44,158 bases of DNA from an uncultured Thermoplasmata archaeon (GTDB lineage: Archaea > Thermoplasmatota > Thermoplasmata > Halarchaeoplasmatales > Halarchaeoplasmataceae), in the NCBI GenBank assembly GCA_964454575.1, contig CAYVTG010000001.1, positions 1-44,158 of the forward strand, written 5' to 3'. Shown here in pieces: positions 3 to 40,263 of the stretch (position 1 is the first letter of the stretch; every line of letters starts with the position of its first letter). Under the pieces are notes generated by a model. That model was not told the DNA's origin and did not search any database. It was given only the letters and a program-made list of their open reading frames with translations. Both the position numbers and the translations under genes were made by a program.

Positions 3-1823
3 AACGGTCGATCAGCCGTATATCTGCCGGGTATAGTGTTGGGTGCCGGTGAAAGGTTGGTGCTGGCCGAGGACGAAGACGGATATCGTGATATATGGCA
101 GGAACCCCCGTGTTATACGTGGGATGAAAGCGGTCTAGTACGTGAGGGGTACTTCCGGTTGAGGGATACCGGCGACGACGTTTTTCTGATGAACGGAAAC
201 CGGATCGTAGACACATTCTCTTATGGTGACGGAGAGGGGGTCATCGAGGGTTGGGATGGTCCCAGGTATCGAACCATGGGTAGGGGTGAATATGCCAAAA
301 GAGGATCTCGAGACACAGACACCGCTGAAGATTGGATATGGACGAGAACATGGCGGGTGGGGCAGTCTAACTTTTCAGTGGAACAGATAGCCTTCGAAGA
401 AGCCACTCTCTTCGTTTCTCCGGATACCTCTTCGTCGGCCATGATGCAGTTCTTAGAAAGTGTAGACCATAACCTGGTCATCTCGGTTTACCTTTTGAGC
501 GAACCCGCGATAACAGATAAGATCTCCAACCTATCTAAAAACGATGTGGATGTAAGGATACTCGTAGATGGTAGTCCGGTGGGAGGTATGCCTGATTATG
601 TCAGGCGGAGCCTTGATATCATAAGCGATGTCGGAGCGGAAGTGATGGTATTGAAGGATGGAAAATATTCGCCCCACAGTTACTTTCATTGTAAATATAT
701 GATCGCCGACAATTCATCCGTACTGGTTTCATCGGAAAACTTCGTCAACACGGGATATCCGGGAGACGGCATCAACGGAAACCGGGGGTGGGGTATAATA
801 TTACATAGTTCTGAAGTGGCCGATCATTTTTCAGATGTGTACCGCTGGGATCGTAATTATGCACACGAATTCACAGCAGATGATGTTTCATATACTGTTC
901 GATCACAAGATGAAATATCGTCGTACCGCAGCAGATACGAACACACGAAGGTAGAGGGCAATTTTACAGTGACCCCTCTTCTATCACCGGATTCATCCAT
1001 GTCTGACAAAACCATCTTGGGTATGATAAACGACGCAGAAGAGAGCATAATGGTGCAGCAGTTCTACATACATGAATGGGGTTATCGGGAAAACCCATAT
1101 CTGGAAGCACTTATCCAAGCGGCTGAAAGAGGCGTCGAGGTGAAGATAATGTTGGATTCGACCTGGTACAATCTAGGTGGAGAAAAAAACGATAATGACT
1201 ATACCGTTGACAGGTTGAATAATATCTCTTCTCAAAAGAACATTCCCCTTGAAGCCAGGCTGCTGGATCCGGGACACGGTATGAAGAAGATACACAATAA
1301 AGGGATGATAGTTGATAGAGATACGGTCCTCATATCGAGTATAAACTGGAACTCCAATTCCGTACTTCAGAACAGAGAGGTCGGTGTGATAGTCCAGGGT
1401 GTAGGCGGATACTATGCCGAAGTTTTCATGAACGATTGGAGATTCGATGTGATCCGACCCATAGCTGACGCCGGAAGGAACAGAGAGGCTGCAGTAGGAG
1501 AAGTAGTTCGCTTCGATGGAAGATACAGTTGGGACGATAAAGAGATAGTATCCTATAGATGGGACCTATCGGGAAATGGTGTGTATGAAAGCGAAGGAGA
1601 TATAGTGTCTACCGTTTTCAGAGAACCGGGTGAGTACAAAATAGAGCTCATAGTGGAAGATGGTGCTGGGAATGTGGGTATGGACAGAACGGTGATAACC
1701 GTAAAAGAACAGCAGGATTCCTTCATGTCATTACAGGAAGACGAATTCCCCATGATTATATTGGTCATCGTCTCCGTAGTTATCTTTGTCTCGATCTTAA
1801 TCTACAGAAGATACCGAAGTTAA
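3..1823 (+). CDS. Phospholipase D-superfamily protein with two HKD motifs, a PKD-like domain and a C-terminal EFP/TM/RRYRS anchor or sorting signal; 5' end lies outside the window
   Basis: The frame is open from nt 3, with no stop before the ORF-track start at 36. HKD motif 1 is HCKYMIADNSSVLVSSENF (His codon 687-689) and HKD motif 2 is HNKGMIVDRDTVLISSINW (His codon 1293-1295). YRWDLSGNG...GEYKIELIVEDGAGNVG looks PKD-like. The N-terminal LVLAEDEDG...DDVFLMNGNRIVDTFSYGD resembles the end of a lamin-tail domain. The tail reads QEDEFPMIILVIVSVVIFVSILIYRRYRS. Confidence 0.8.
   Translation, partial: NGRSAVYLPGIVLGAGERLVLAEDEDGYRDIWQEPPCYTWDESGLVREGYFRLRDTGDDVFLMNGNRIVDTFSYGDGEGVIEGWDGPRYRTMGRGEYAKRGSRDTDTAEDWIWTRTWRVGQSNFSVEQIAFEEATLFVSPDTSSSAMMQFLESVDHNLVISVYLLSEPAITDKISNLSKNDVDVRILVDGSPVGGMPDYVRRSLDIISDVGAEVMVLKDGKYSPHSYFHCKYMIADNSSVLVSSENFVNTGYPGDGINGNRGWGIILHSSEVADHFSDVYRWDRNYAHEFTADDVSYTVRSQDEISSYRSRYEHTKVEGNFTVTPLLSPDSSMSDKTILGMINDAEESIMVQQFYIHEWGYRENPYLEALIQAAERGVEVKIMLDSTWYNLGGEKNDNDYTVDRLNNISSQKNIPLEARLLDPGHGMKKIHNKGMIVDRDTVLISSINWNSNSVLQNREVGVIVQGVGGYYAEVFMNDWRFDVIRPIADAGRNREAAVGEVVRFDGRYSWDDKEIVSYRWDLSGNGVYESEGDIVSTVFREPGEYKIELIVEDGAGNVGMDRTVITVKEQQDSFMSLQEDEFPMIILVIVSVVIFVSILIYRRYRS
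1740..1820 (+). other. C-terminal tripartite signal DEFP / hydrophobic helix / RRYRS
   Basis: Read directly from the sequence: the EF codons GAATTC are at 1743-1748, followed by 19 hydrophobic residues and a basic end. Confidence 0.7.
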
Positions 1824-18562: not shown

Positions 18563-19192
18563 ATGCCTCGGGATACTCGAAACGGGGAAGAAGGTGATCC
18601 AAAGCGTTTTTGGCAGAGCAAGACCGATGAAAGGTCTCAGTTCATATTTATCTCATTCGTTCTCGTGATAATATTTATGTTGATCGTGGTGATCAGTATG
18701 GGGGCATACGGTTATTATTCTTGGCTGGGATGGAAAGAAGGACCGCAGATACGTGTCGACGAAGGTTTGTTCGAATTCAGTATGAACGATACTCATCCCG
18801 AGGCGGATATCACCATACATCTGACACTTATCAATCAGGGTGAGAAGGAGAGCGGCAGCGTCAGGCTGGAATGGTTGGTGATGGAAAGTACAGATGCAAA
18901 GGATAATATCGTCTTCGAAAGCGGTTCGCTCATGTTCCAACCGATCACTTCGGAATCCACACGGAAAGAAACCTTCGATGTGAGTCTGCCCCAAGGCGAT
19001 TACGTGATAGCCTACCGAGTATATGATGATCAACTATTCAGCTACGAAGCCAGACAGAACATATTCGTCCGCTCCGATGATGTAAGCAGCGAGTCACCGG
19101 AGACCATATCAGTACCCGAATTCCCCGTGCTGATGGTTCCTATTCTAATTATTTTGTTGATATTTGCCTTATATAGGAGGAGATATAGTTGA
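18563..19192 (+). CDS. Paralog 1 of a three-gene family: N-terminal signal anchor, Ig/CARDB-like ectodomain, C-terminal PEFP/TM/RRRYS signal
   Basis: Contains KRFW, a TM helix, ITIHLTLINQGEKESGSVRLEWLVM, and the tail SVPEFPVLMVPILIILLIFALYRRRYS. A TATA-like box lies at 18531-18539. Confidence 0.8.
   Translation: MPRDTRNGEEGDPKRFWQSKTDERSQFIFISFVLVIIFMLIVVISMGAYGYYSWLGWKEGPQIRVDEGLFEFSMNDTHPEADITIHLTLINQGEKESGSVRLEWLVMESTDAKDNIVFESGSLMFQPITSESTRKETFDVSLPQGDYVIAYRVYDDQLFSYEARQNIFVRSDDVSSESPETISVPEFPVLMVPILIILLIFALYRRRYS
19115..19189 (+). other. C-terminal tripartite signal PEFP / hydrophobic helix / RRRYS (PEF-CTERM-like)
   Basis: The PEFP codons are at 19115-19126, followed by VLMVPILIILLIFALY and RRRYS. 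Confidence 0.7.
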
Positions 19193-19809
19193 CTGAAAAA
19201 GATACTAAAAGATACTGGGAGCGCAGAGAAGGCGGAAAATCATCCGCACTGATGATGGTATTCATCATAACGATAATCGTTATGCTTGTGGTAGTCACGG
19301 TGATGGCCGGCTACGGATACGCAAAATATCAGGAATGGGCTCGACAGCCACAGATCCATGTTGAACGAAGTTTGTTCGAATTCCACGATGACGTATATGA
19401 AGAACAGGTAAATATCACCGCACATGTGTATCTTAGAAATCGGGGTGACAAGGACACGGGGCCGCTCGAACTCGAATGGTTGATAATGCCTGCGGATCGT
19501 GCAGCCGATAACATATACATATTCAAAGGTCGAAAAGAGGTGGAGTCCATGAAGGTAGATGAAACTATGGAAATCACATTTGATCTCAGGCTGCCGACGG
19601 GTGAGTACAGGATAGCTTTTAGAACCTACGAAGAAGATTACTTCGGATATGAAGGTCGGCAGTCGTTAACCGTGGGTGAGGAAGATGTGGAGGAACGGGC
19701 CGGAGCGGACGATGAAAAATGGACCGAAGAAGCTGTGCCCTCTCTTTCATTCTTTTTCGTGATTTTGATCACGCTAATAACAACCATCATATGGAGGAAA
19801 CGCAGATGA
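19189..19809 (+). CDS. Paralog 2: N-terminal signal anchor, Ig/CARDB-like ectodomain, C-terminal TM/WRKRR tail
   Basis: The TTG start overlaps the upstream stop (TTGA). Contains KRYW, a TM helix, ITAHVYLRNRGDKDTGPLELEWLIM, and the tail AVPSLSFFFVILITLITTIIWRKRR. Confidence 0.78.
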   Translation: MTEKDTKRYWERREGGKSSALMMVFIITIIVMLVVVTVMAGYGYAKYQEWARQPQIHVERSLFEFHDDVYEEQVNITAHVYLRNRGDKDTGPLELEWLIMPADRAADNIYIFKGRKEVESMKVDETMEITFDLRLPTGEYRIAFRTYEEDYFGYEGRQSLTVGEEDVEERAGADDEKWTEEAVPSLSFFFVILITLITTIIWRKRR

Positions 19810-33709: not shown

Positions 33710-34654
33710 ATGAAAAAGATACTAACGATCGCGGTGGTGCTGGGCATGGCTTTAGTCATGCTCTCCGGCGCCACTGCGGGATACGGAGAAACATTGCAAG
33801 GATCTACACAAGATGCCTACGATGGAACCAAACTGGATGGAGGAAATTGTACAGTAGTACATGTTCAGGACCCTGGAGATACACCGGTTTACAGCGGTAG
33901 TTTTGCTACTGGCGGTTTTGGCGATTACAGCTGGGATGCGACGGTTCTAACAGAGGCTGGTTGGGTCACTGTACCAAATACAGCCGGCGAAGACCTATAC
34001 TTCATCAAAGAAGTAGGTAACTACATCGCAGCAACACACGCCGACGTGACGGAAACAACCTCGATCAAAGCATCACAATACGACATGGTTGATCGCTTGG
34101 AACCAATACCAACACCTGAAGCAAATGCTGTTGGCTCAGATTATATCAATCTGACTATACCCGCACCCAAATATACGGATGCTTCACTAAGTGTCGGTGG
34201 TTCAACTGGACAGGGTACTTTTGATGTAGTTACAAGCTACGCTGTATTTTACACCGACGATGCTGGTGCAACATGGACTTACGCAGGAAACGCAGAACAT
34301 TTCGTTGACGGCCCAGATAACCCATTGGAACCTAGTTACGATGACGCTATTAACCCCGACGGTATCGATACTGGCCACTATACATTCAACACATCTACAG
34401 ACGGCGGCCTAACCCTTAACCCCGAAACAACCTACAATTTTGCTGTACGTGTCAACATCGGCCCAGCCGGAACAGGATACGGCGGATGGAACGGTGGTGT
34501 GGGCTCGTATACAACCTGGACAATGGGAACATCATCAGCCGACATAACAACTGACCCAGCATCCGAATTCGGAATCGGTATGATGGTACCTGTTGTAGCT
34601 ATAATCGGTATGTTCGTTGCTTTCACCGTCTACAGACGGAAGAAGTACGAGTAG
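33710..34654 (+). CDS. Surface protein with signal peptide, Fn3-like region and a C-terminal SEFG/TM/RRKKYE tripartite sorting signal; likely archaeosortase cargo
   Basis: Signal peptide MKKILTIAVVLGMALVMLSGATAG. Tail DPASEFGIGMMVPVVAIIGMFVAFTVYRRKKYE. AAGGAG lies at 33694-33699. Oligo-T tracts follow the stop. Confidence 0.85.
   Translation: MKKILTIAVVLGMALVMLSGATAGYGETLQGSTQDAYDGTKLDGGNCTVVHVQDPGDTPVYSGSFATGGFGDYSWDATVLTEAGWVTVPNTAGEDLYFIKEVGNYIAATHADVTETTSIKASQYDMVDRLEPIPTPEANAVGSDYINLTIPAPKYTDASLSVGGSTGQGTFDVVTSYAVFYTDDAGATWTYAGNAEHFVDGPDNPLEPSYDDAINPDGIDTGHYTFNTSTDGGLTLNPETTYNFAVRVNIGPAGTGYGGWNGGVGSYTTWTMGTSSADITTDPASEFGIGMMVPVVAIIGMFVAFTVYRRKKYE
34562..34651 (+). other. C-terminal tripartite signal SEFG / hydrophobic helix / RRKKYE (PEF-CTERM-like)
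   Basis: The SEFG codons are at 34562-34573, followed by IGMMVPVVAIIGMFVAFTVY and RRKKYE. Confidence 0.7.
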
Positions 34655-34683
34655 CTGAACTGGTAAAACCCAAACAAAACCCC

Positions 34684-34703
34684 TTTCTTTTTTTAATTTT
34701 TTT
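34684..34703 (+). terminator. Oligo-T tracts (T3-C-T7-AA-T7) 30 nt after the stop of the SEF-tailed surface protein gene
   Basis: Archaeal termination commonly uses oligo-T runs, and two T7 runs sit here. The tract is also the 5' part of repeat copy 1. Confidence 0.45.
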
Positions 34704-34756
34704 GTTCTAAATTAAAAAATAAGCAGAATCCGTCATGATTGTGCGGCATCTTTCAT
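34689..34756 (+). repeat. 68-bp direct repeat, copy 1 (T-tracts, TATA-like TAAATTAAAA, then ATGATTGTGCGGCAT)
   Basis: 63 of 68 positions are identical to 34921-34988 by my position-by-position count. The offset is 232 nt. Confidence 0.9.
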
Positions 34757-34920
34757 CGTTGCGATGAAAGGTAAGTGGAACCGGCTCAGGTTGCGCGGCA
34801 TTTTTTTATTATTTTTTTGTTTTTTCAAATAATAAAATAATTAGAATTTTCAATTCTGATACATTTTTTTCTATTTTTTTAAATAGAAAAAAGCATCGAA
34901 AATCTTCGATTTTGGATAAG

Positions 34921-34988
34921 TTTTTTAATTTTTTTGTTCTAAATTAAAAGATAAGCAGAATCAGTTATGATTGCGCGGCATTTTTCAT
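34921..34988 (+). repeat. 68-bp direct repeat, copy 2, immediately upstream of the archaeosortase gene
   Basis: Same count as above. The 15-mer TTGCGCGGCATTTTT (34971-34985) also recurs exactly at 34791-34805. Confidence 0.9.
34941..34952 (+). promoter_or_regulatory. TATA-like box of repeat copy 2; candidate archaeosortase promoter
   Basis: AAATTAAAAGAT lies about 20-27 nt upstream of ATG 34967 and TTG 34971. This is the same geometry as the TATA-to-start spacing seen at 15723, 15399 and 18563. Confidence 0.4.
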
Positions 34989-35045
34989 TTTTCACACACT
35001 CTTCTACACAAACTATTTTTAGGCACCTACCGCTTATTGTTATAT

Positions 35046-36410
35046 ATGAGTAAACTCAAAACCTGGCGTTTCTTCGCCGGCTTGATCATATTCTTCGCCG
35101 GCCTTGACGTTACACTTTTACTGAGCCATTTGTCACGGTTCATCGGAGTTGCCCTGCTTTTCGCCGGTCTGTTACTGATGATAACTGCCCATCCTAAGCT
35201 GTCTAAGCGTACCAAAGATGCACTACCGGACAAGTTCGTTTCCTTGTTCTCTCCAGAAACACTGTCCAAACTCAGATATCTCGTATTTTTTGTGCTGAGC
35301 GTGTTTACGGTCATACTATTCTTTCGATCTCTTAACACTTTGATCCCACTTATCGTGTTACTAGTAGCACCCGAATTAGCCATGCGAGCGCTAAAAAAAG
35401 AAGATACAGATAACACCCTGTTATCGATGGAGTTCCAGATGTTCGTTTTCGTCTCCACAGTTTTGTACATCAACTTCGATGCGGTATTCGGCTATCGAGA
35501 TCCGCCGGCGATATTCCCGCTGGTGTTCCTTGTAGCCGCTTGGATCATCGAAGGCATCTATCTGTTCGGACGTTTAGCACCTGCAAAGCCCATCGAGTCA
35601 GTAAAGCAACCTATTGAAGAAGAAGGCCCGTACCTCTCGGAACGTTTTATCCACATGATAACCTTCAACGGCAGGTTCAAACCGTTTATACCGGTAGTCG
35701 GCGCTGCTATGATAGGAATGGTGTTCGTGTTCAACCTCTTCATAACAGGCGGACTTTCCCTAGGTTCTCACGACGGTGCGACTCTACTTCTCGGAGTTGC
35801 GTTGTTAGCATATAATCGTATACCGGACAAGTACTCCTTCGAACGTGATTTCACCATGCTTTTTCTTGCATTTCTTTTCCTTATCTTAGTACTACCCATA
35901 ACTATCCTCGCATACACATCCGGGCCTATGACGGAGGCCAGCAATTCACCGGTCATCTACCATATGCTGGCACGACCGACGGCGTGGTTACTCCGTTCAG
36001 TAGGTATCCCAGCACGCGCTGCGATAAAAGGCGAATGGGTCATAATCGGCATGCCCATGGCAGCTAACAGCTTTTACATCGACTACGTATATCGGGAAGT
36101 ACTGATAGGTCTTTCCTGCACAGGTCTATACTCGGTGACCATCTTCATCTCGGCCTTCCTAGCATTCGTCATGGTGCACTTCAAGAAGATGACATTTCAA
36201 CTCTCTCTATTCATGGTATTAGGGATAATCGCTTCATGGATCGCCAACATACTACGTATGTTCGTCATAATGCTCATGGGATATCATTACGGTTCGGAGG
36301 CCATGATGTGGACACACAACAACGCAGGTATCTTCATATTCATGGTTTGGATAGCTCTATTCTGGGGCGTGATGTTCAAATTCTTCGATATACCCGTAGG
36401 TAGGGATTAA
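35046..36410 (+). CDS. Archaeosortase (exosortase/archaeosortase-family transpeptidase), with an N-terminal extension of about 150 aa
   Basis: Polytopic membrane protein carrying the three family hallmarks in order: LIGLSCTGLYS (Cys codon 36117-36119), IANILRMFV (Arg codon 36255-36257) and WTHNNAG (His codon 36315-36317). I prefer the ATG at 35046 (MSKLKTWRFFAG) to the TTG at 34971 in the ORF track. Confidence 0.85.
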   Translation: MSKLKTWRFFAGLIIFFAGLDVTLLLSHLSRFIGVALLFAGLLLMITAHPKLSKRTKDALPDKFVSLFSPETLSKLRYLVFFVLSVFTVILFFRSLNTLIPLIVLLVAPELAMRALKKEDTDNTLLSMEFQMFVFVSTVLYINFDAVFGYRDPPAIFPLVFLVAAWIIEGIYLFGRLAPAKPIESVKQPIEEEGPYLSERFIHMITFNGRFKPFIPVVGAAMIGMVFVFNLFITGGLSLGSHDGATLLLGVALLAYNRIPDKYSFERDFTMLFLAFLFLILVLPITILAYTSGPMTEASNSPVIYHMLARPTAWLLRSVGIPARAAIKGEWVIIGMPMAANSFYIDYVYREVLIGLSCTGLYSVTIFISAFLAFVMVHFKKMTFQLSLFMVLGIIASWIANILRMFVIMLMGYHYGSEAMMWTHNNAGIFIFMVWIALFWGVMFKFFDIPVGRD

Positions 36411-36438
36411 TCTTTTAGCGTAGTGTTATCATATCCGT

Positions 36439-37404
36439 ATGATGCTTGAAAGGTATCAACGGATACTCGAAAAAGGATTAGAGCCGTACTATCTCAAGGC
36501 CAAGAAAGTTAATGTGACGCCATTGTTCGATAAGACCGTGGAAGAACTGTGGAAACTTCACGATACACAGTTGGAAGATAGCATACCTTCCTTGGAACTC
36601 AAATCTGAGCTAGCGCACCGCATGTTAGATCACTGCGAACTGTGCGAGTGGAGGTGCGGAGTCAACAGGAACAGGGGTGAATTGGGAGTATGTGGTGTTT
36701 TCGCCGAACCGAAGGTATCACCCGTCTTTCTGCATTTCGGTGAAGAGGACGTGTTGGTCCCTTCACACACAGTTTTCTTCGCCGGCTGCAATTTTAACTG
36801 TATCTACTGCCAGAACTACGATATAAGCCAGCGGCCGGACAGCGGAAGTTACGTTCGACCGGAAGTACTATCAGAGAGATTGAACCACGGCGGCGGCCGT
36901 AATGTCAACTGGGTTGGCGGCGACCCAACGCCGAACATAGCGTACATCACCGAAGTGCTAAGGCACATGACCGCACCGCTTCCGCAGATATGGAATTCCA
37001 ACATGTATCTAACGGAAGAGGGAATGAAACTTTCGGCGAAACTCATGGACGTTTATCTTACCGATTTCAAGTACGGTAACGATGACTGTGCGCAGCGCTT
37101 GTCGGGTGTAAGGGATTATACCGAGATAGTCAAACGTAATCACTTGTTGGCGGAGAAAACCGGCGACATCATCATCCGTCATCTAGTACTGCCGGGGCAC
37201 ATCGACTGCTGCACTCGGCCGTTGCTACAATGGATAGATAACAACTTGGATTCACCCTATGTGAACATAATGAAACAGTACCGACCGGTTTATCGTGTAT
37301 CGGAATGTTCAGAGATAGATAGGCATCTGAGTAGCGAAGAGAACAGAACTATCGACGAACTGCGGGACGAATACGCTAATCTATCGCTATCTAACCGGTC
37401 GTAA
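36439..37404 (+). CDS. Radical SAM protein, PflX-like (pyruvate formate-lyase activase-related, COG1313 type)
   Basis: The radical SAM motif is GCNFNCIYCQNYD (Cys codons 36787-36789, 36799-36801 and 36808-36810). An upstream Cys cluster reads HCELCEWRCGVNRNRGELGVCG. Also contains NWVGGDPTP. It starts 28 nt after the sortase stop. Confidence 0.85.
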   Translation: MMLERYQRILEKGLEPYYLKAKKVNVTPLFDKTVEELWKLHDTQLEDSIPSLELKSELAHRMLDHCELCEWRCGVNRNRGELGVCGVFAEPKVSPVFLHFGEEDVLVPSHTVFFAGCNFNCIYCQNYDISQRPDSGSYVRPEVLSERLNHGGGRNVNWVGGDPTPNIAYITEVLRHMTAPLPQIWNSNMYLTEEGMKLSAKLMDVYLTDFKYGNDDCAQRLSGVRDYTEIVKRNHLLAEKTGDIIIRHLVLPGHIDCCTRPLLQWIDNNLDSPYVNIMKQYRPVYRVSECSEIDRHLSSEENRTIDELRDEYANLSLSNRS

Positions 37405-37437: not shown

Positions 37438-40263
37438 ATGCAAGCAAAAAAGACGTTGATAATGTTCGTACTGGCAATGTTACTGACCGCAGGTATCTCC
37501 GATATAATGGGGGGTAGCGAAACGAGTTCTTTTGATATCCCTGCTCCCGAAGGTCTGAGCATCGAAAAGACCGACACCGACGTGATACTGAGTTGGGATG
37601 AGATCGATGGCGTGGACGGTTACAAGATATATCATACCACGGACCTTTATGGCTCATTTCCCGAGGATTGGGAATACTATAACACAACATCTCTACAATG
37701 GATCCACGACGATGTTCTAACCGGCACCGAAGATCATTTCTACATGGTGCGCGGCTTGAACGGTGTTGTGGAAGGCGAACTCTCGGAGGTAGTTTTCTGT
37801 GCGGCTGTAGAGTTCATATACCACAGTGCATCCCAACGAAAATACTACTTATCGGTACCATCCGACTTCCCAGACATGAACGGCGACGATAACTTGACGG
37901 CCAGCGACCTTGTGATCCACATCGAAGGGCACACGGAAGATGGTTCCAACACGAAGATAAGCCACGTGGTGAAGTGGGATGCGGAGATCGGTACTTATTC
38001 CGAGCAATACTACTACGTTGAAGACCCGTTCAGTGACAACGGTTGGAATGGCGGTACGGACTTTCCCATCTACCCCGGAGACGGCATCGGCTTCTTCGTG
38101 GAGTCCAACTTTACCTGGTATGTTAATGCGACGGAGACCGGAGACCCCATCGAATTCGTATATTATGGTGAAGCCAACAACAAATATTATCTCTCGGTAC
38201 CGTACACCGTGACGGACTACAACTACGACGGACAACTGACGTCCAGAGACTTAGTAGTGGCCATCGAAGGGGACACAGGTGAGGGAACGAACACGAAGAT
38301 AAGCAAGGTGATGAAGTGGGATGCGGAGCTCGGAGGATATTCAGAGCGGTTTTACTATGAAGAAGATCCGTTCAGCGGCAGTGGATGGTATGGAACGGAC
38401 TTCCCCATATCCCCCGGCGACGGCATCGGCTTCTTCGTCGAGTCCAATTTTACCTGGAATCCCGAACTTATCGATCTACAACCGCCGGCAGTGATCAACA
38501 TAACTCCGGGCACGTCGATCATACCTTTAGATACCGAAATAACCCTGAGCTTCTCCCGGGATATGAATCGGACATCGGTGGAGGCAGCCTTGGATTGGTC
38601 CGACATGACCGTTGAATTAGAGTGGGAGGACGACCGCACGCTCACTATAACACCACAACAGCCGTTGACGCCGGGTAAGGAACACAACCTAACCATCACC
38701 CCGTCAGCCAAAGACACCGTCAGAAACGCCTTGGACGGCAGCGGAGACGGCATCCCCGGGGACGTCTTTGTATATACCTTCACCGTCGAGCTACCGCCGG
38801 TCATCGAACACGCACCGCCGGAGAGATGGCACTTGGAGGATAATATCACGCTCGAAACCGAAGCGACCGACGACATAGAGTTGGATAGTGTTTCGCTGGA
38901 ATACAGTTATGGTGAAAACTACGGTAACGTGACTATGGATAACATAGAAAACGATACATTCACTCTCACACTAACTGCACCGGGCACGGAGTGCATACTG
39001 AACTACACCATATGGGGCACCGATAGTAGCGGGCTGGTCTCTTCGGAGAACTACACGCTTCCCATACTCAACCTTACTGCTCCTGTGGTAGTAAACATAT
39101 GGCAGGAACACGAGGTCATGCCGATGAACGGAGTACTGCAGTTAGAATTCTCCAAACCCATGGACCTCGATATATACTCTGCACTGACTGTGACACCGGA
39201 TGCAGAGTTCGAATTGTTCTGGGCGAGCACAAAACATTTGAATATTCAGTTTTACAATCTCACTGAAGAAACGGAATATACGATCACTCTAAATTCCAAT
39301 CTAACCACAGATGTTAATGGGATCTCCATGGAAGAGGGCGTATCTTACAGTTTTATATCTCAAGGACGTCCGACTATCAGTTTATCCGATACCTCAGAAG
39401 AGATATCAAAATGCTCGGAAATAGTGGTTGAAGCAGAGATACTATCCGATATGGAGATAGCAGAAGTTAATCTATATTACAACGACACGAACGGCGAAGA
39501 ACACTCTCTCCTAGCGAATTACAGCGAAGGTTTTTGGACAGCTACCATACCGAGCCAAAATCTAAGCGGTGAGATACGTTACATGTTCGAAGCTATAGAC
39601 ATCAGCGGATTGAAGAGCTATACGGACATCCACAGCATAGTGGTGACCAACCCAACGGTCATCCATCCCTGTCAAGATATCGACGCAGAGGCGGCTACAC
39701 CTTTCGAGTTCACAGTAAGGGTGACCAATCCCACGGGAGTACGAATGGTGATACTGCACTACAACGACGGAGAATCTACAGAGCTAACACTCAGGGATGG
39801 CAGCCCTGCAGATGGCAACTGGAGTACTCAATTGACCGTCGACGAACAGATATTCGAATATCAGTTAGAAGTGGTGGACTGGGACGGAGAAAGCATAGTC
39901 CTACCTAACACACCACTTTCCATGGAGGTCGGCGAGCAGCAGTCATCGGCATTCGGTAATATCTGGTTACTGCTTCTTATCGCAGTGGCCTGCGCTGCCG
40001 GTATCGGTACCATTGCGTGGAAAAAGAAGGGAAGCACCGTTAGCGAAGATGTGCCGGAAGCAGCCGCAGCACCGGTCACGGAATCACCCGAAGAACAAGT
40101 TAATAATACCACATGTACTGTATGCTTCGGTACCATAGAAGGCACCCCGCATAGATGCAGCGGCTGTGGAAATGTATATCATAGAAACTGCATCCAAGAA
40201 CTCGGGGAATGTCCGGTTTGTGGTACTGATCCTTTAAAAGGTGGTAATGATGAATCACCGTGA
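37438..40263 (+). CDS. Giant surface protein: signal peptide, Fn3-like domain, two 113-aa dockerin-loop modules, several Ig-like (SbsA/Big-type) domains, TM helix, cytoplasmic C4HC3 zinc finger
   Basis: Signal peptide MQAKKTLIMFVLAMLLTAGIS. The cassette is homologous to the C-terminus of the 31391 gene. There are about 20 N-x-S/T sequons in the ectodomain. TM helix NIWLLLLIAVACAAGIGTIAW, followed by KKKG. It starts 33 nt after the radical SAM stop. Confidence 0.88.
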   Translation: MQAKKTLIMFVLAMLLTAGISDIMGGSETSSFDIPAPEGLSIEKTDTDVILSWDEIDGVDGYKIYHTTDLYGSFPEDWEYYNTTSLQWIHDDVLTGTEDHFYMVRGLNGVVEGELSEVVFCAAVEFIYHSASQRKYYLSVPSDFPDMNGDDNLTASDLVIHIEGHTEDGSNTKISHVVKWDAEIGTYSEQYYYVEDPFSDNGWNGGTDFPIYPGDGIGFFVESNFTWYVNATETGDPIEFVYYGEANNKYYLSVPYTVTDYNYDGQLTSRDLVVAIEGDTGEGTNTKISKVMKWDAELGGYSERFYYEEDPFSGSGWYGTDFPISPGDGIGFFVESNFTWNPELIDLQPPAVINITPGTSIIPLDTEITLSFSRDMNRTSVEAALDWSDMTVELEWEDDRTLTITPQQPLTPGKEHNLTITPSAKDTVRNALDGSGDGIPGDVFVYTFTVELPPVIEHAPPERWHLEDNITLETEATDDIELDSVSLEYSYGENYGNVTMDNIENDTFTLTLTAPGTECILNYTIWGTDSSGLVSSENYTLPILNLTAPVVVNIWQEHEVMPMNGVLQLEFSKPMDLDIYSALTVTPDAEFELFWASTKHLNIQFYNLTEETEYTITLNSNLTTDVNGISMEEGVSYSFISQGRPTISLSDTSEEISKCSEIVVEAEILSDMEIAEVNLYYNDTNGEEHSLLANYSEGFWTATIPSQNLSGEIRYMFEAIDISGLKSYTDIHSIVVTNPTVIHPCQDIDAEAATPFEFTVRVTNPTGVRMVILHYNDGESTELTLRDGSPADGNWSTQLTVDEQIFEYQLEVVDWDGESIVLPNTPLSMEVGEQQSSAFGNIWLLLLIAVACAAGIGTIAWKKKGSTVSEDVPEAAAAPVTESPEEQVNNTTCTVCFGTIEGTPHRCSGCGNVYHRNCIQELGECPVCGTDPLKGGNDESP
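37807..38490 (+). repeat. Two tandem copies of the same 113-aa dockerin-loop module found at 32978-33655
   Basis: VEFIYHSASQRKYYLSVPSDFPDMNGDDNLTASDLVIHIEGHTEDGSNTKISHVVKWDAEIGTYSEQYYY...PGDGIGFFVESNFTW and IEFVYYGEANNKYYLSVPYTVTDYNYDGQLTSRDLVVAIEG.... The two genes share identical DNA runs, for example CTTCCCAGACATGAACGGCGACG. Confidence 0.9.
40114..40221 (+). other. Cytoplasmic C4HC3 zinc finger (PHD/RING-variant-like spacing)
   Basis: CTVCFGTIEGTPHRCSGCGNVYHRNCIQELGECPVCG gives C-x2-C-x10-C-x2-C-x4-H-x2-C-x6-C-x2-C. Confidence 0.6.

Follow-up and report, generated by a model that had tools for sequence, protein, structure and literature searches.

A 44,158-nt stretch of DNA from an uncultured salt-lake Thermoplasmata archaeon (assembly GCA_964454575.1, contig CAYVTG010000001.1; hereafter the window) carries three consecutive forward-strand open reading frames (ORFs) at 33710-37404, encoding a 314-aa protein with a tripartite C-terminal tail, an archaeosortase and a radical SAM enzyme. 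We consider it probable that this locus specifies a working archaeosortase of an uncatalogued Thermoplasmatota-wide family, with the small upstream protein as its preferred cargo and at least three further cargos encoded elsewhere in the genome. This interpretation draws on the family to which the enzyme belongs, on the alignment of its catalytic residues, on a tripartite signal conserved across secreted proteins that are otherwise unrelated, on gene adjacency, and on the joint presence and loss of enzyme and signal. The anchoring system is of a known kind, in a divergent form that has not been catalogued, and its enzyme has gained a four-helix membrane module. What is new is an archaeosortase family whose nearest curated relative is ArtC, a PEF-like signal that tolerates Ser or Pro at its first position and is followed by an intramembrane proline, and a clade-specific module able to stand alone.

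Archaeosortase systems set which archaeal surface proteins become lipid-anchored, and experimental tests have been confined to ArtA and its PGF signal. The locus described here provides a compact enzyme-cargo pair for a Thermoplasmatota-wide family to which current NCBIfam models give no more specific name than "family protein".

The sortase gene and its catalytic residues

The longest ORF at the sortase locus begins with a TTG codon (34971-36410, 479 aa), and in the alignment every homologue begins where the ATG at 35046 lies (MSKLKTWRFFAGL...). The gene therefore spans 35046-36410 on the forward strand and encodes 454 aa, and the spacer separating it from the upstream gene is 391 nt long, the length first given for it. 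The product scores above the cut-off of TIGR04178, the signature of exosortases and archaeosortases, at 50.6 bits (cut-off 23), and above that of PF09721 at 42.6 bits (cut-off 25.7). Cys358 (36117-36119), the predicted catalytic nucleophile, Arg404 (36255-36257) in the motif A-N-I-L-R-M, and His424 (36315-36317) in W-T-H-N-N-A-G are invariant across 60 homologues and lie in the last three membrane helices, the arrangement characteristic of the superfamily. They align with the corresponding residues of the ArtA encoded in the same genome and of a genuine ArtC, so that the three hallmark positions picked out in the initial annotation stand. An AlphaFold2 model built with 60 sequences is confident (predicted local distance difference test [pLDDT] 86.3, predicted template modelling score 0.77). 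Sequence and fold searches of the PDB with the sortase found no match, and it appears that no exosortase or archaeosortase structure has been solved so far.

Relationship to ArtC and other archaeosortases

ArtC (TIGR03762) and its PEF-CTERM signal (TIGR03024) were defined by Haft, Payne and Selengut in 2012, according to later papers that cite this work (PMC6098224, PMC5244752, PMC9723798). Among curated subfamily hidden Markov models (HMMs), that of ArtC gives the best score with the window enzyme, 47.8-50 bits, which is half of the cut-off of 100; the sortase has no match to TIGR04125 (ArtA; cut-off 75 bits) or TIGR04124 (ArtE). All 22 relatives sampled likewise score highest with the ArtC model among the subfamilies, each of them under the cut-off. 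In NCBI records these proteins are called only "exosortase/archaeosortase family protein"; at JGI, several of the relatives appear as 'archaeosortase C (PEF-CTERM variant)'.

These scores and labels, together with a V-P-E-F signal core followed by a transmembrane (TM) helix and basic residues, as in the genome of a genuine ArtC (G037), would be expected if the enzyme were merely a divergent ArtC using ordinary PEF-CTERM signals, and hence no new subfamily. We regard this as quite unlikely, given the wide gap that separates the two groups. When TIGR03762 was run over 401 Thermoplasmatota genomes the scores were bimodal, with 361 bits over the full model for the genuine ArtC of one complete 1.49-Mb genome (G037), 33-89 bits for 56 others, and 50 bits for the window enzyme. 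Conversely, with a profile of the window enzyme's family the genuine ArtC scores just 40 bits and ArtA is not hit at all. A maximum-likelihood tree of 81 sequences places the window enzyme in an 8-row clade from haloalkaliphilic Thermoplasmata (99% support in the Shimodaira-Hasegawa-like approximate likelihood ratio test, SH-aLRT) nested inside a 77-row Thermoplasmatota family (96% SH-aLRT), and the genuine ArtC falls outside this family on a long branch; the two do not form a single clade, in a tree made by a quick search with one reference ArtC and long outgroup branches. The signals differ likewise: 11 tails in G037 exceed the PEF-CTERM cut-off of 23 bits, at 27-43 bits, and none does in the window genome, where PEF-CTERM is the best model for the tails with scores of 11.9 to 18.9 bits in the window (22.7 for the best tail of a relative).

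The initial annotation had offered an ArtC relative or a new subfamily as alternatives, to be settled by subfamily HMMs and a phylogeny, and both analyses agree with that proposal. Judged by its sequence, the sortase is a member of an uncatalogued Thermoplasmatota-wide family with ArtC as the nearest curated subfamily, and it is predicted to work like an ArtC-type archaeosortase, yet fails the tests of ArtC membership. Besides the shared superfamily signature, catalytic residues and best-scoring model, the two systems have in common a signal made up of a (V/I)-P-E-F core, a TM helix and an Arg/Lys cluster, and several cargos per genome alongside a separate ArtA/PGF system. They differ in that the window family has an N-terminal hairpin and charged linker, to which the window clade adds a four-helix insertion, and in that Ser can replace Pro in the window signal, EF is preferentially followed by G or P, and a conserved proline lies 6-7 residues beyond the Phe. 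Neither this proline nor the Ser option is seen in eight canonical tails of G037 (V/I-P-E-F-S...).

Two other systems offer comparisons. The PEFG-CTERM signal (TIGR04296) is linked to ArtE of Thaumarchaeota and has the literal P-E-F-G string in common with tails described here, but these score only 9-14 bits against its cut-off of 25, and the sortase, as noted, does not match ArtE. ArtA of Haloferax volcanii is similar in its aligned catalytic residues and in the predicted chemistry, in which cleavage at a tripartite signal depends on Cys and a lipid is then attached (PMC6098224). It belongs to a different subfamily, recognises PGF, and has no N-terminal module, and the ArtA of the window genome is a separate gene.

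The adjacent cargo

The gene upstream of the spacer (33710-34654, forward strand) encodes a dedicated 314-aa cargo, as judged from its ORF, 14 orthologues, an AlphaFold2 model and synteny. A signal peptide (MKKILTIAVVLGMALVMLSGATAGY) stands at its N-terminus, and the protein ends in ...DPASEFGIGMMVPVVAIIGMFVAFTVYRRKKYE, a tripartite tail made up of SEFG (34562-34573), a TM helix (34574-34633) and RRKKYE (34634-34651), as originally described. The model (pLDDT 80.8) and its fold matches indicate a small all-beta ectodomain with an FN3-like C-terminal domain, and the ectodomain is reused within larger surface proteins. The 14 orthologues are only 36-65% identical and E-F-G is invariant in all of them; the preceding residue is Ser in seven and Pro in seven.

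A cargo with a [P/S]EFG tail lies beside the sortase in six related genomes (G002, G003, G004, G011, G012 and G013) and on six public contigs (L049-L054), and in all of these except G013 it is a full-length orthologue of the window cargo. The order cargo-sortase-radical SAM recurs in G002, G003, G004 and G012, in part in G005, G011 and G013, and also on L049-L054. More distant members of the sortase family adjoin proteins with PEF, GEF, PEY, PVF or PFF tails, and the family overall therefore reads signals of a P-x-[F/Y] type.

EF tails elsewhere in the genome

All ORFs of the window genome (G000) were searched for a C-terminal TM helix followed by a basic cluster. EF-type tails were found at C1:34654 (SEFG, the adjacent cargo), C1:19192 (PEFP), C1:1823 (DEFP), C2:29165-30529 (PEFS) and C11:36099-36650 (SEFS). 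Four of these are supported [P/S]EF tails, one of which adjoins the sortase, the pattern of cognate tails expected of the superfamily. Four further proteins have PGF-type tails, in which APGF or TPGF precedes the TM helix and basic cluster (C2:3873-4964, C9:30983-31891, C29:2-973 and C68:5679-6242). The genome encodes exactly two archaeosortases, the second being a canonical ArtA of 278 aa (G000:C4:32286-33122, minus strand; TIGR04125 118 bits against a cut-off of 75), and two enzymes with two tail classes in one genome is the classical pattern.

The second supported cargo in the window is a 209-aa CARDB/DUF7490-like protein (18563-19192, forward strand) with the tail VPEFP, TM helix and RRRYS (19115-19189). 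Its score of 18.9 bits is the top PEF-CTERM score in the genome, and the motif, already recognised in the initial annotation, is kept in orthologues with tails such as VPEFPAVILPV and VPEFPSVVIPI. The third tail then proposed, DEFP with a TM helix and RRYRS (1740-1820), is present at the end of a PLD-PKD protein (36-1823, forward strand; domains from Pfam), but it was dropped as a sortase signal after comparison with orthologues. This protein is conserved family-wide, and 21 orthologues have a plain TM anchor with no EF, among them the orthologues in three genomes of the same genus that do encode the sortase; the DEFP tail also lacks the intramembrane proline common to the other tails, and is probably an ordinary TM anchor. 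Of the three window proteins first credited with the signal, the SEFG and PEFP proteins thus retain it and the DEFP protein does not, and the relaxation at the first position is supported for Ser and Pro and not for Asp. Two other candidates, NEFT on C59 and VPSLSFF at the end of gene 19189-19809, were also discarded, having neither P/S-E-F nor the intramembrane proline.

The tails of relatives define an extended motif, [P/S]-E-F-[G/P/S]-x(3-4)-[LIV]-P-[VI], with the proline at F+6 or F+7, which recurs on unrelated folds (FN3-like, CARDB-like, BNR propeller, and giant proteins). Genome-wide, among ~51 C-terminal TM-plus-basic tails, EF shares first place for frequency among the dipeptides found where the TM helix begins, with four occurrences against ~0.8 expected, the latter an estimate from boundary composition. 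The sharper definition [P/S]-E-F-[G/P/S]-x(3-4)-h-P would allow surface-proteome annotation in uncultured haloalkaliphiles.

These features bear on a different reading of the tails, in which they are ordinary stop-transfer anchors, the EF is structural or due to chance, and the adjacency of sortase and cargo is without functional meaning. The DEFP tail, one of the three in the window, is indeed such an anchor, and no tail reaches the curated PEF-CTERM cut-off. As a general account it is nevertheless very improbable, in view of the invariance of E-F-G among such divergent cargo orthologues, the recurrence of one extended motif on unrelated folds, the enrichment of EF at the TM boundary, and the disappearance of the motif along with the sortase core (see below).

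Two side observations concern the tails. Genes 18563-19192 and 19189-19809 are tandem CARDB/DUF7490-like paralogues with overlapping stop and start codons, and the second ends in AVPSLSFFF... and WRKRR, without an EF motif. In giant proteins of 1,000-2,000 aa, I-[S/P]-E-F, a TM helix and YRRKKE precede a long acidic cytoplasmic tail, such that the signal is internal rather than C-terminal; they are encoded on G005:C23, G006:C1, G007:C14, G011:C58, G012:C60, G014:C77, G019:C29 and G023:C16 (L031-L046). These internal signals recall the non-terminal substrate of Haloferax ArtA (cited in PMC6098224).

Co-occurrence of the sortase and EF tails

A simple tabulation of sortase and EF tails over 41 related metagenome-assembled genomes (MAGs) gave both in 10, sortase only in six, tails only in nine and neither in 16. 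This weak result was replaced because the sortase often lies on short contigs or at contig ends; in G004, G005, G011, G013, G026, G035 and G040 its contig is either no longer than 8 kb or ends within the locus. The comparison was instead made at the level of the locus, using family members in which the radical SAM locus is assembled. Sortase core and EF tails then occur together in 7/7 genomes (G000, G002, G003, G004, G005, G012 and G013), and in 5/5 genomes in which the core is absent from contigs of 27-92 kb (G009, G010, G018, G021 and G022) the EF tails are absent as well (best E-values 0.003-0.4). The BNR-propeller cargo family was not found in the genera of these five genomes. An exact test on the split gives p ~0.001, although this association is only suggestive because the genomes represent two or three independent lineages.

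The same comparison addresses the possibility that EF tails are substrates of ArtA, or of both enzymes, and that the ArtC-like enzyme acts on something else. The PGF and PEF motifs are alike, and in nine MAGs with EF tails (G001, G006, G007, G014, G015, G016, G019, G023 and G030) no ArtC-like sortase was found and an ArtA-sized archaeosortase is the only one detected. We think this reading of the tails unlikely. The five core-less genomes still hold an ArtA-sized archaeosortase in spite of having no EF tails, and ArtA alone therefore does not sustain such tails. Eight of the nine discordant MAGs either lack the syntenic radical SAM gene or have it cut short by the end of a contig, as on G001:C59 and G006:C68, which stop inside it; the ninth, G030, has the orthologue. 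Moreover, PGF and EF tails form distinct classes within one genome, the proline at F+6 or F+7 being limited to the EF class, and the cargo adjoins the ArtC-like gene in at least 10 loci.

Several observations weigh against our preferred interpretation, that the sortase acts on the EF-tailed proteins. The genomes compared are related, and the 7/7 and 5/5 split may reflect perhaps two or three independent events. The nine MAGs with EF tails and no detected sortase are discordant, and G030 (74% complete), which holds the radical SAM orthologue, is an unexplained exception even where the locus is taken into account. Another exception is genus g4, whose two MAGs (95% and 81% complete) have EF tails and neither a sortase nor a radical SAM gene that could be found. 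The tail profile was built partly from the same genomes that were later searched with it. Finally, ArtA is the only archaeosortase studied experimentally (PMC6098224), and the family described here is known from sequences and models.

Predicted mode of action

By analogy with Haloferax ArtA (PMC6098224), the cargo would be exported through the Sec pathway by means of its N-terminal signal peptide and held transiently in the membrane by the C-terminal helix, with the Arg/Lys cluster remaining cytoplasmic. The enzyme would recognise [P/S]-E-F-[G/P/S]-x(3-4)-[LIV]-P-[VI] at the outer membrane boundary, and Cys358, aided by Arg404 and His424, would cleave at the motif and transfer the C-terminus so formed to an acceptor that is probably a lipid of the membrane. 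The ArtA of the genome is expected to serve a separate set of proteins, the four with PGF tails.

The N-terminal module

The sortase was originally noted for an unusual N-terminal membrane extension of about 150 aa. The extension is real, but it comprises two parts of different distribution. A two-helix hairpin (residues 1-47; 35046-35186, forward strand), defined by alignments and hydropathy, is common to the whole Thermoplasmatota family, and it is followed in the 8-row clade only by an internal insertion of ~130 aa (residues ~48-180; 35187-35585, forward strand) with two short helices and four TM helices, and then by the charged linker and the core. The insertion is modelled by AlphaFold2 at pLDDT 87-97, and its even number of helices preserves the topology of the enzyme. 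An origin by duplication of the core was excluded (hhalign probability 0.7%).

Searches with the insertion as query show that the hairpin and insertion also occur as free-standing ORFs of 180-190 aa without a catalytic core. In the sister genus g7 these are at G010:C20 (L132:4828-5406, minus strand), G018:C1 (L134:3944-4486) and G022:C26 (L133:3480-4196); they stop exactly at the start of the linker and sit directly upstream of a PflX-type radical SAM orthologue, with which the module gene of G018 shares 4 nt. The free-standing module also makes up three database clusters (185-190 aa), and the metagenome contigs looked up for two of them (L172:1758-2330 and L173:804-1361) have the same gene pair. 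The closest pair of free-standing modules has a ratio of nonsynonymous to synonymous substitution rates (dN/dS) of 0.13 at a dS of 1.4, and the module is therefore a maintained gene and not debris. The g7 genomes that encode it have no EF tails. Because purifying selection maintains it as a gene of its own in genomes that have lost the core, we propose that the four-helix insertion is a lineage-specific add-on whose role would be independent of catalysis. The natural split between module and catalytic core offers a clue to the role of accessory membrane domains in sortase-like enzymes.

The radical SAM neighbour

A PflX-type radical SAM gene (36439-37404, forward strand; PF04055) begins 28 nt downstream of the sortase and adjoins it in all insertion-clade loci. 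It was considered as a dedicated partner of the sortase and rejected in that strict sense: orthologues with 55-69% identity occur in genomes without the sortase, and in genus g6 the radical SAM gene is present with module and core both absent. Such orthologues are widespread in a housekeeping context, and the radical SAM enzyme therefore does not need the sortase. Their neighbourhood (L132-L136) consists of an RNase PH-like gene, a 690-aa helicase gene on the opposite strand, the radical SAM gene, and genes for prolyl-tRNA synthetase and elongation factor 2, and the sortase and giant surface-protein genes appear to have been inserted into it.

The pairing of module and radical SAM gene is nevertheless a recurrent association. 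The six-helix N-terminal module could be a membrane partner of the downstream PflX-type enzyme, an unlikely suggestion hinted at because g7 and the two metagenome contigs keep the tight gene pair after loss of the core. If it were true, the sortase of this clade would have a physical link to a step that depends on radical SAM chemistry, such as modification of the cargo, the acceptor lipid or the enzyme itself.

Farther downstream, the tail of a giant surface protein (37438-40263) includes a cytoplasmic zinc finger (40114-40221) with the pattern C-x2-C-x10-C-x2-C-G-x2-YH-x2-C-x6-CP-x-C. It resembles the C-terminal domain of distant sortase homologues (P0044, P0056, P0058 and P0059; L022-L024), a likeness that hints at a shared cytoplasmic docking module.

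The intergenic spacer

The AT-rich spacer between cargo and sortase (34655-35045, forward strand) contains two copies of an element composed of a hairpin and a T-run (34697-34756 and 34929-34988). An Rfam search of the spacer returned only sub-threshold noise and no family, and the hairpin of the element is no more stable than shuffled sequence. The core of the element, AAATAAGCAGAATC-N(3-7)-GATTG[TC]GCGGCAT-T-run, is dispersed in intergenic positions, with 13 core copies in the genome; it is also found on contigs C6, C8, C42, C67 and C94 of G000, and some copies are in tandem (59-nt period, C94). It may be a terminator-like repetitive extragenic palindromic (REP) element or a repeat of the miniature inverted-repeat transposable element (MITE) type.

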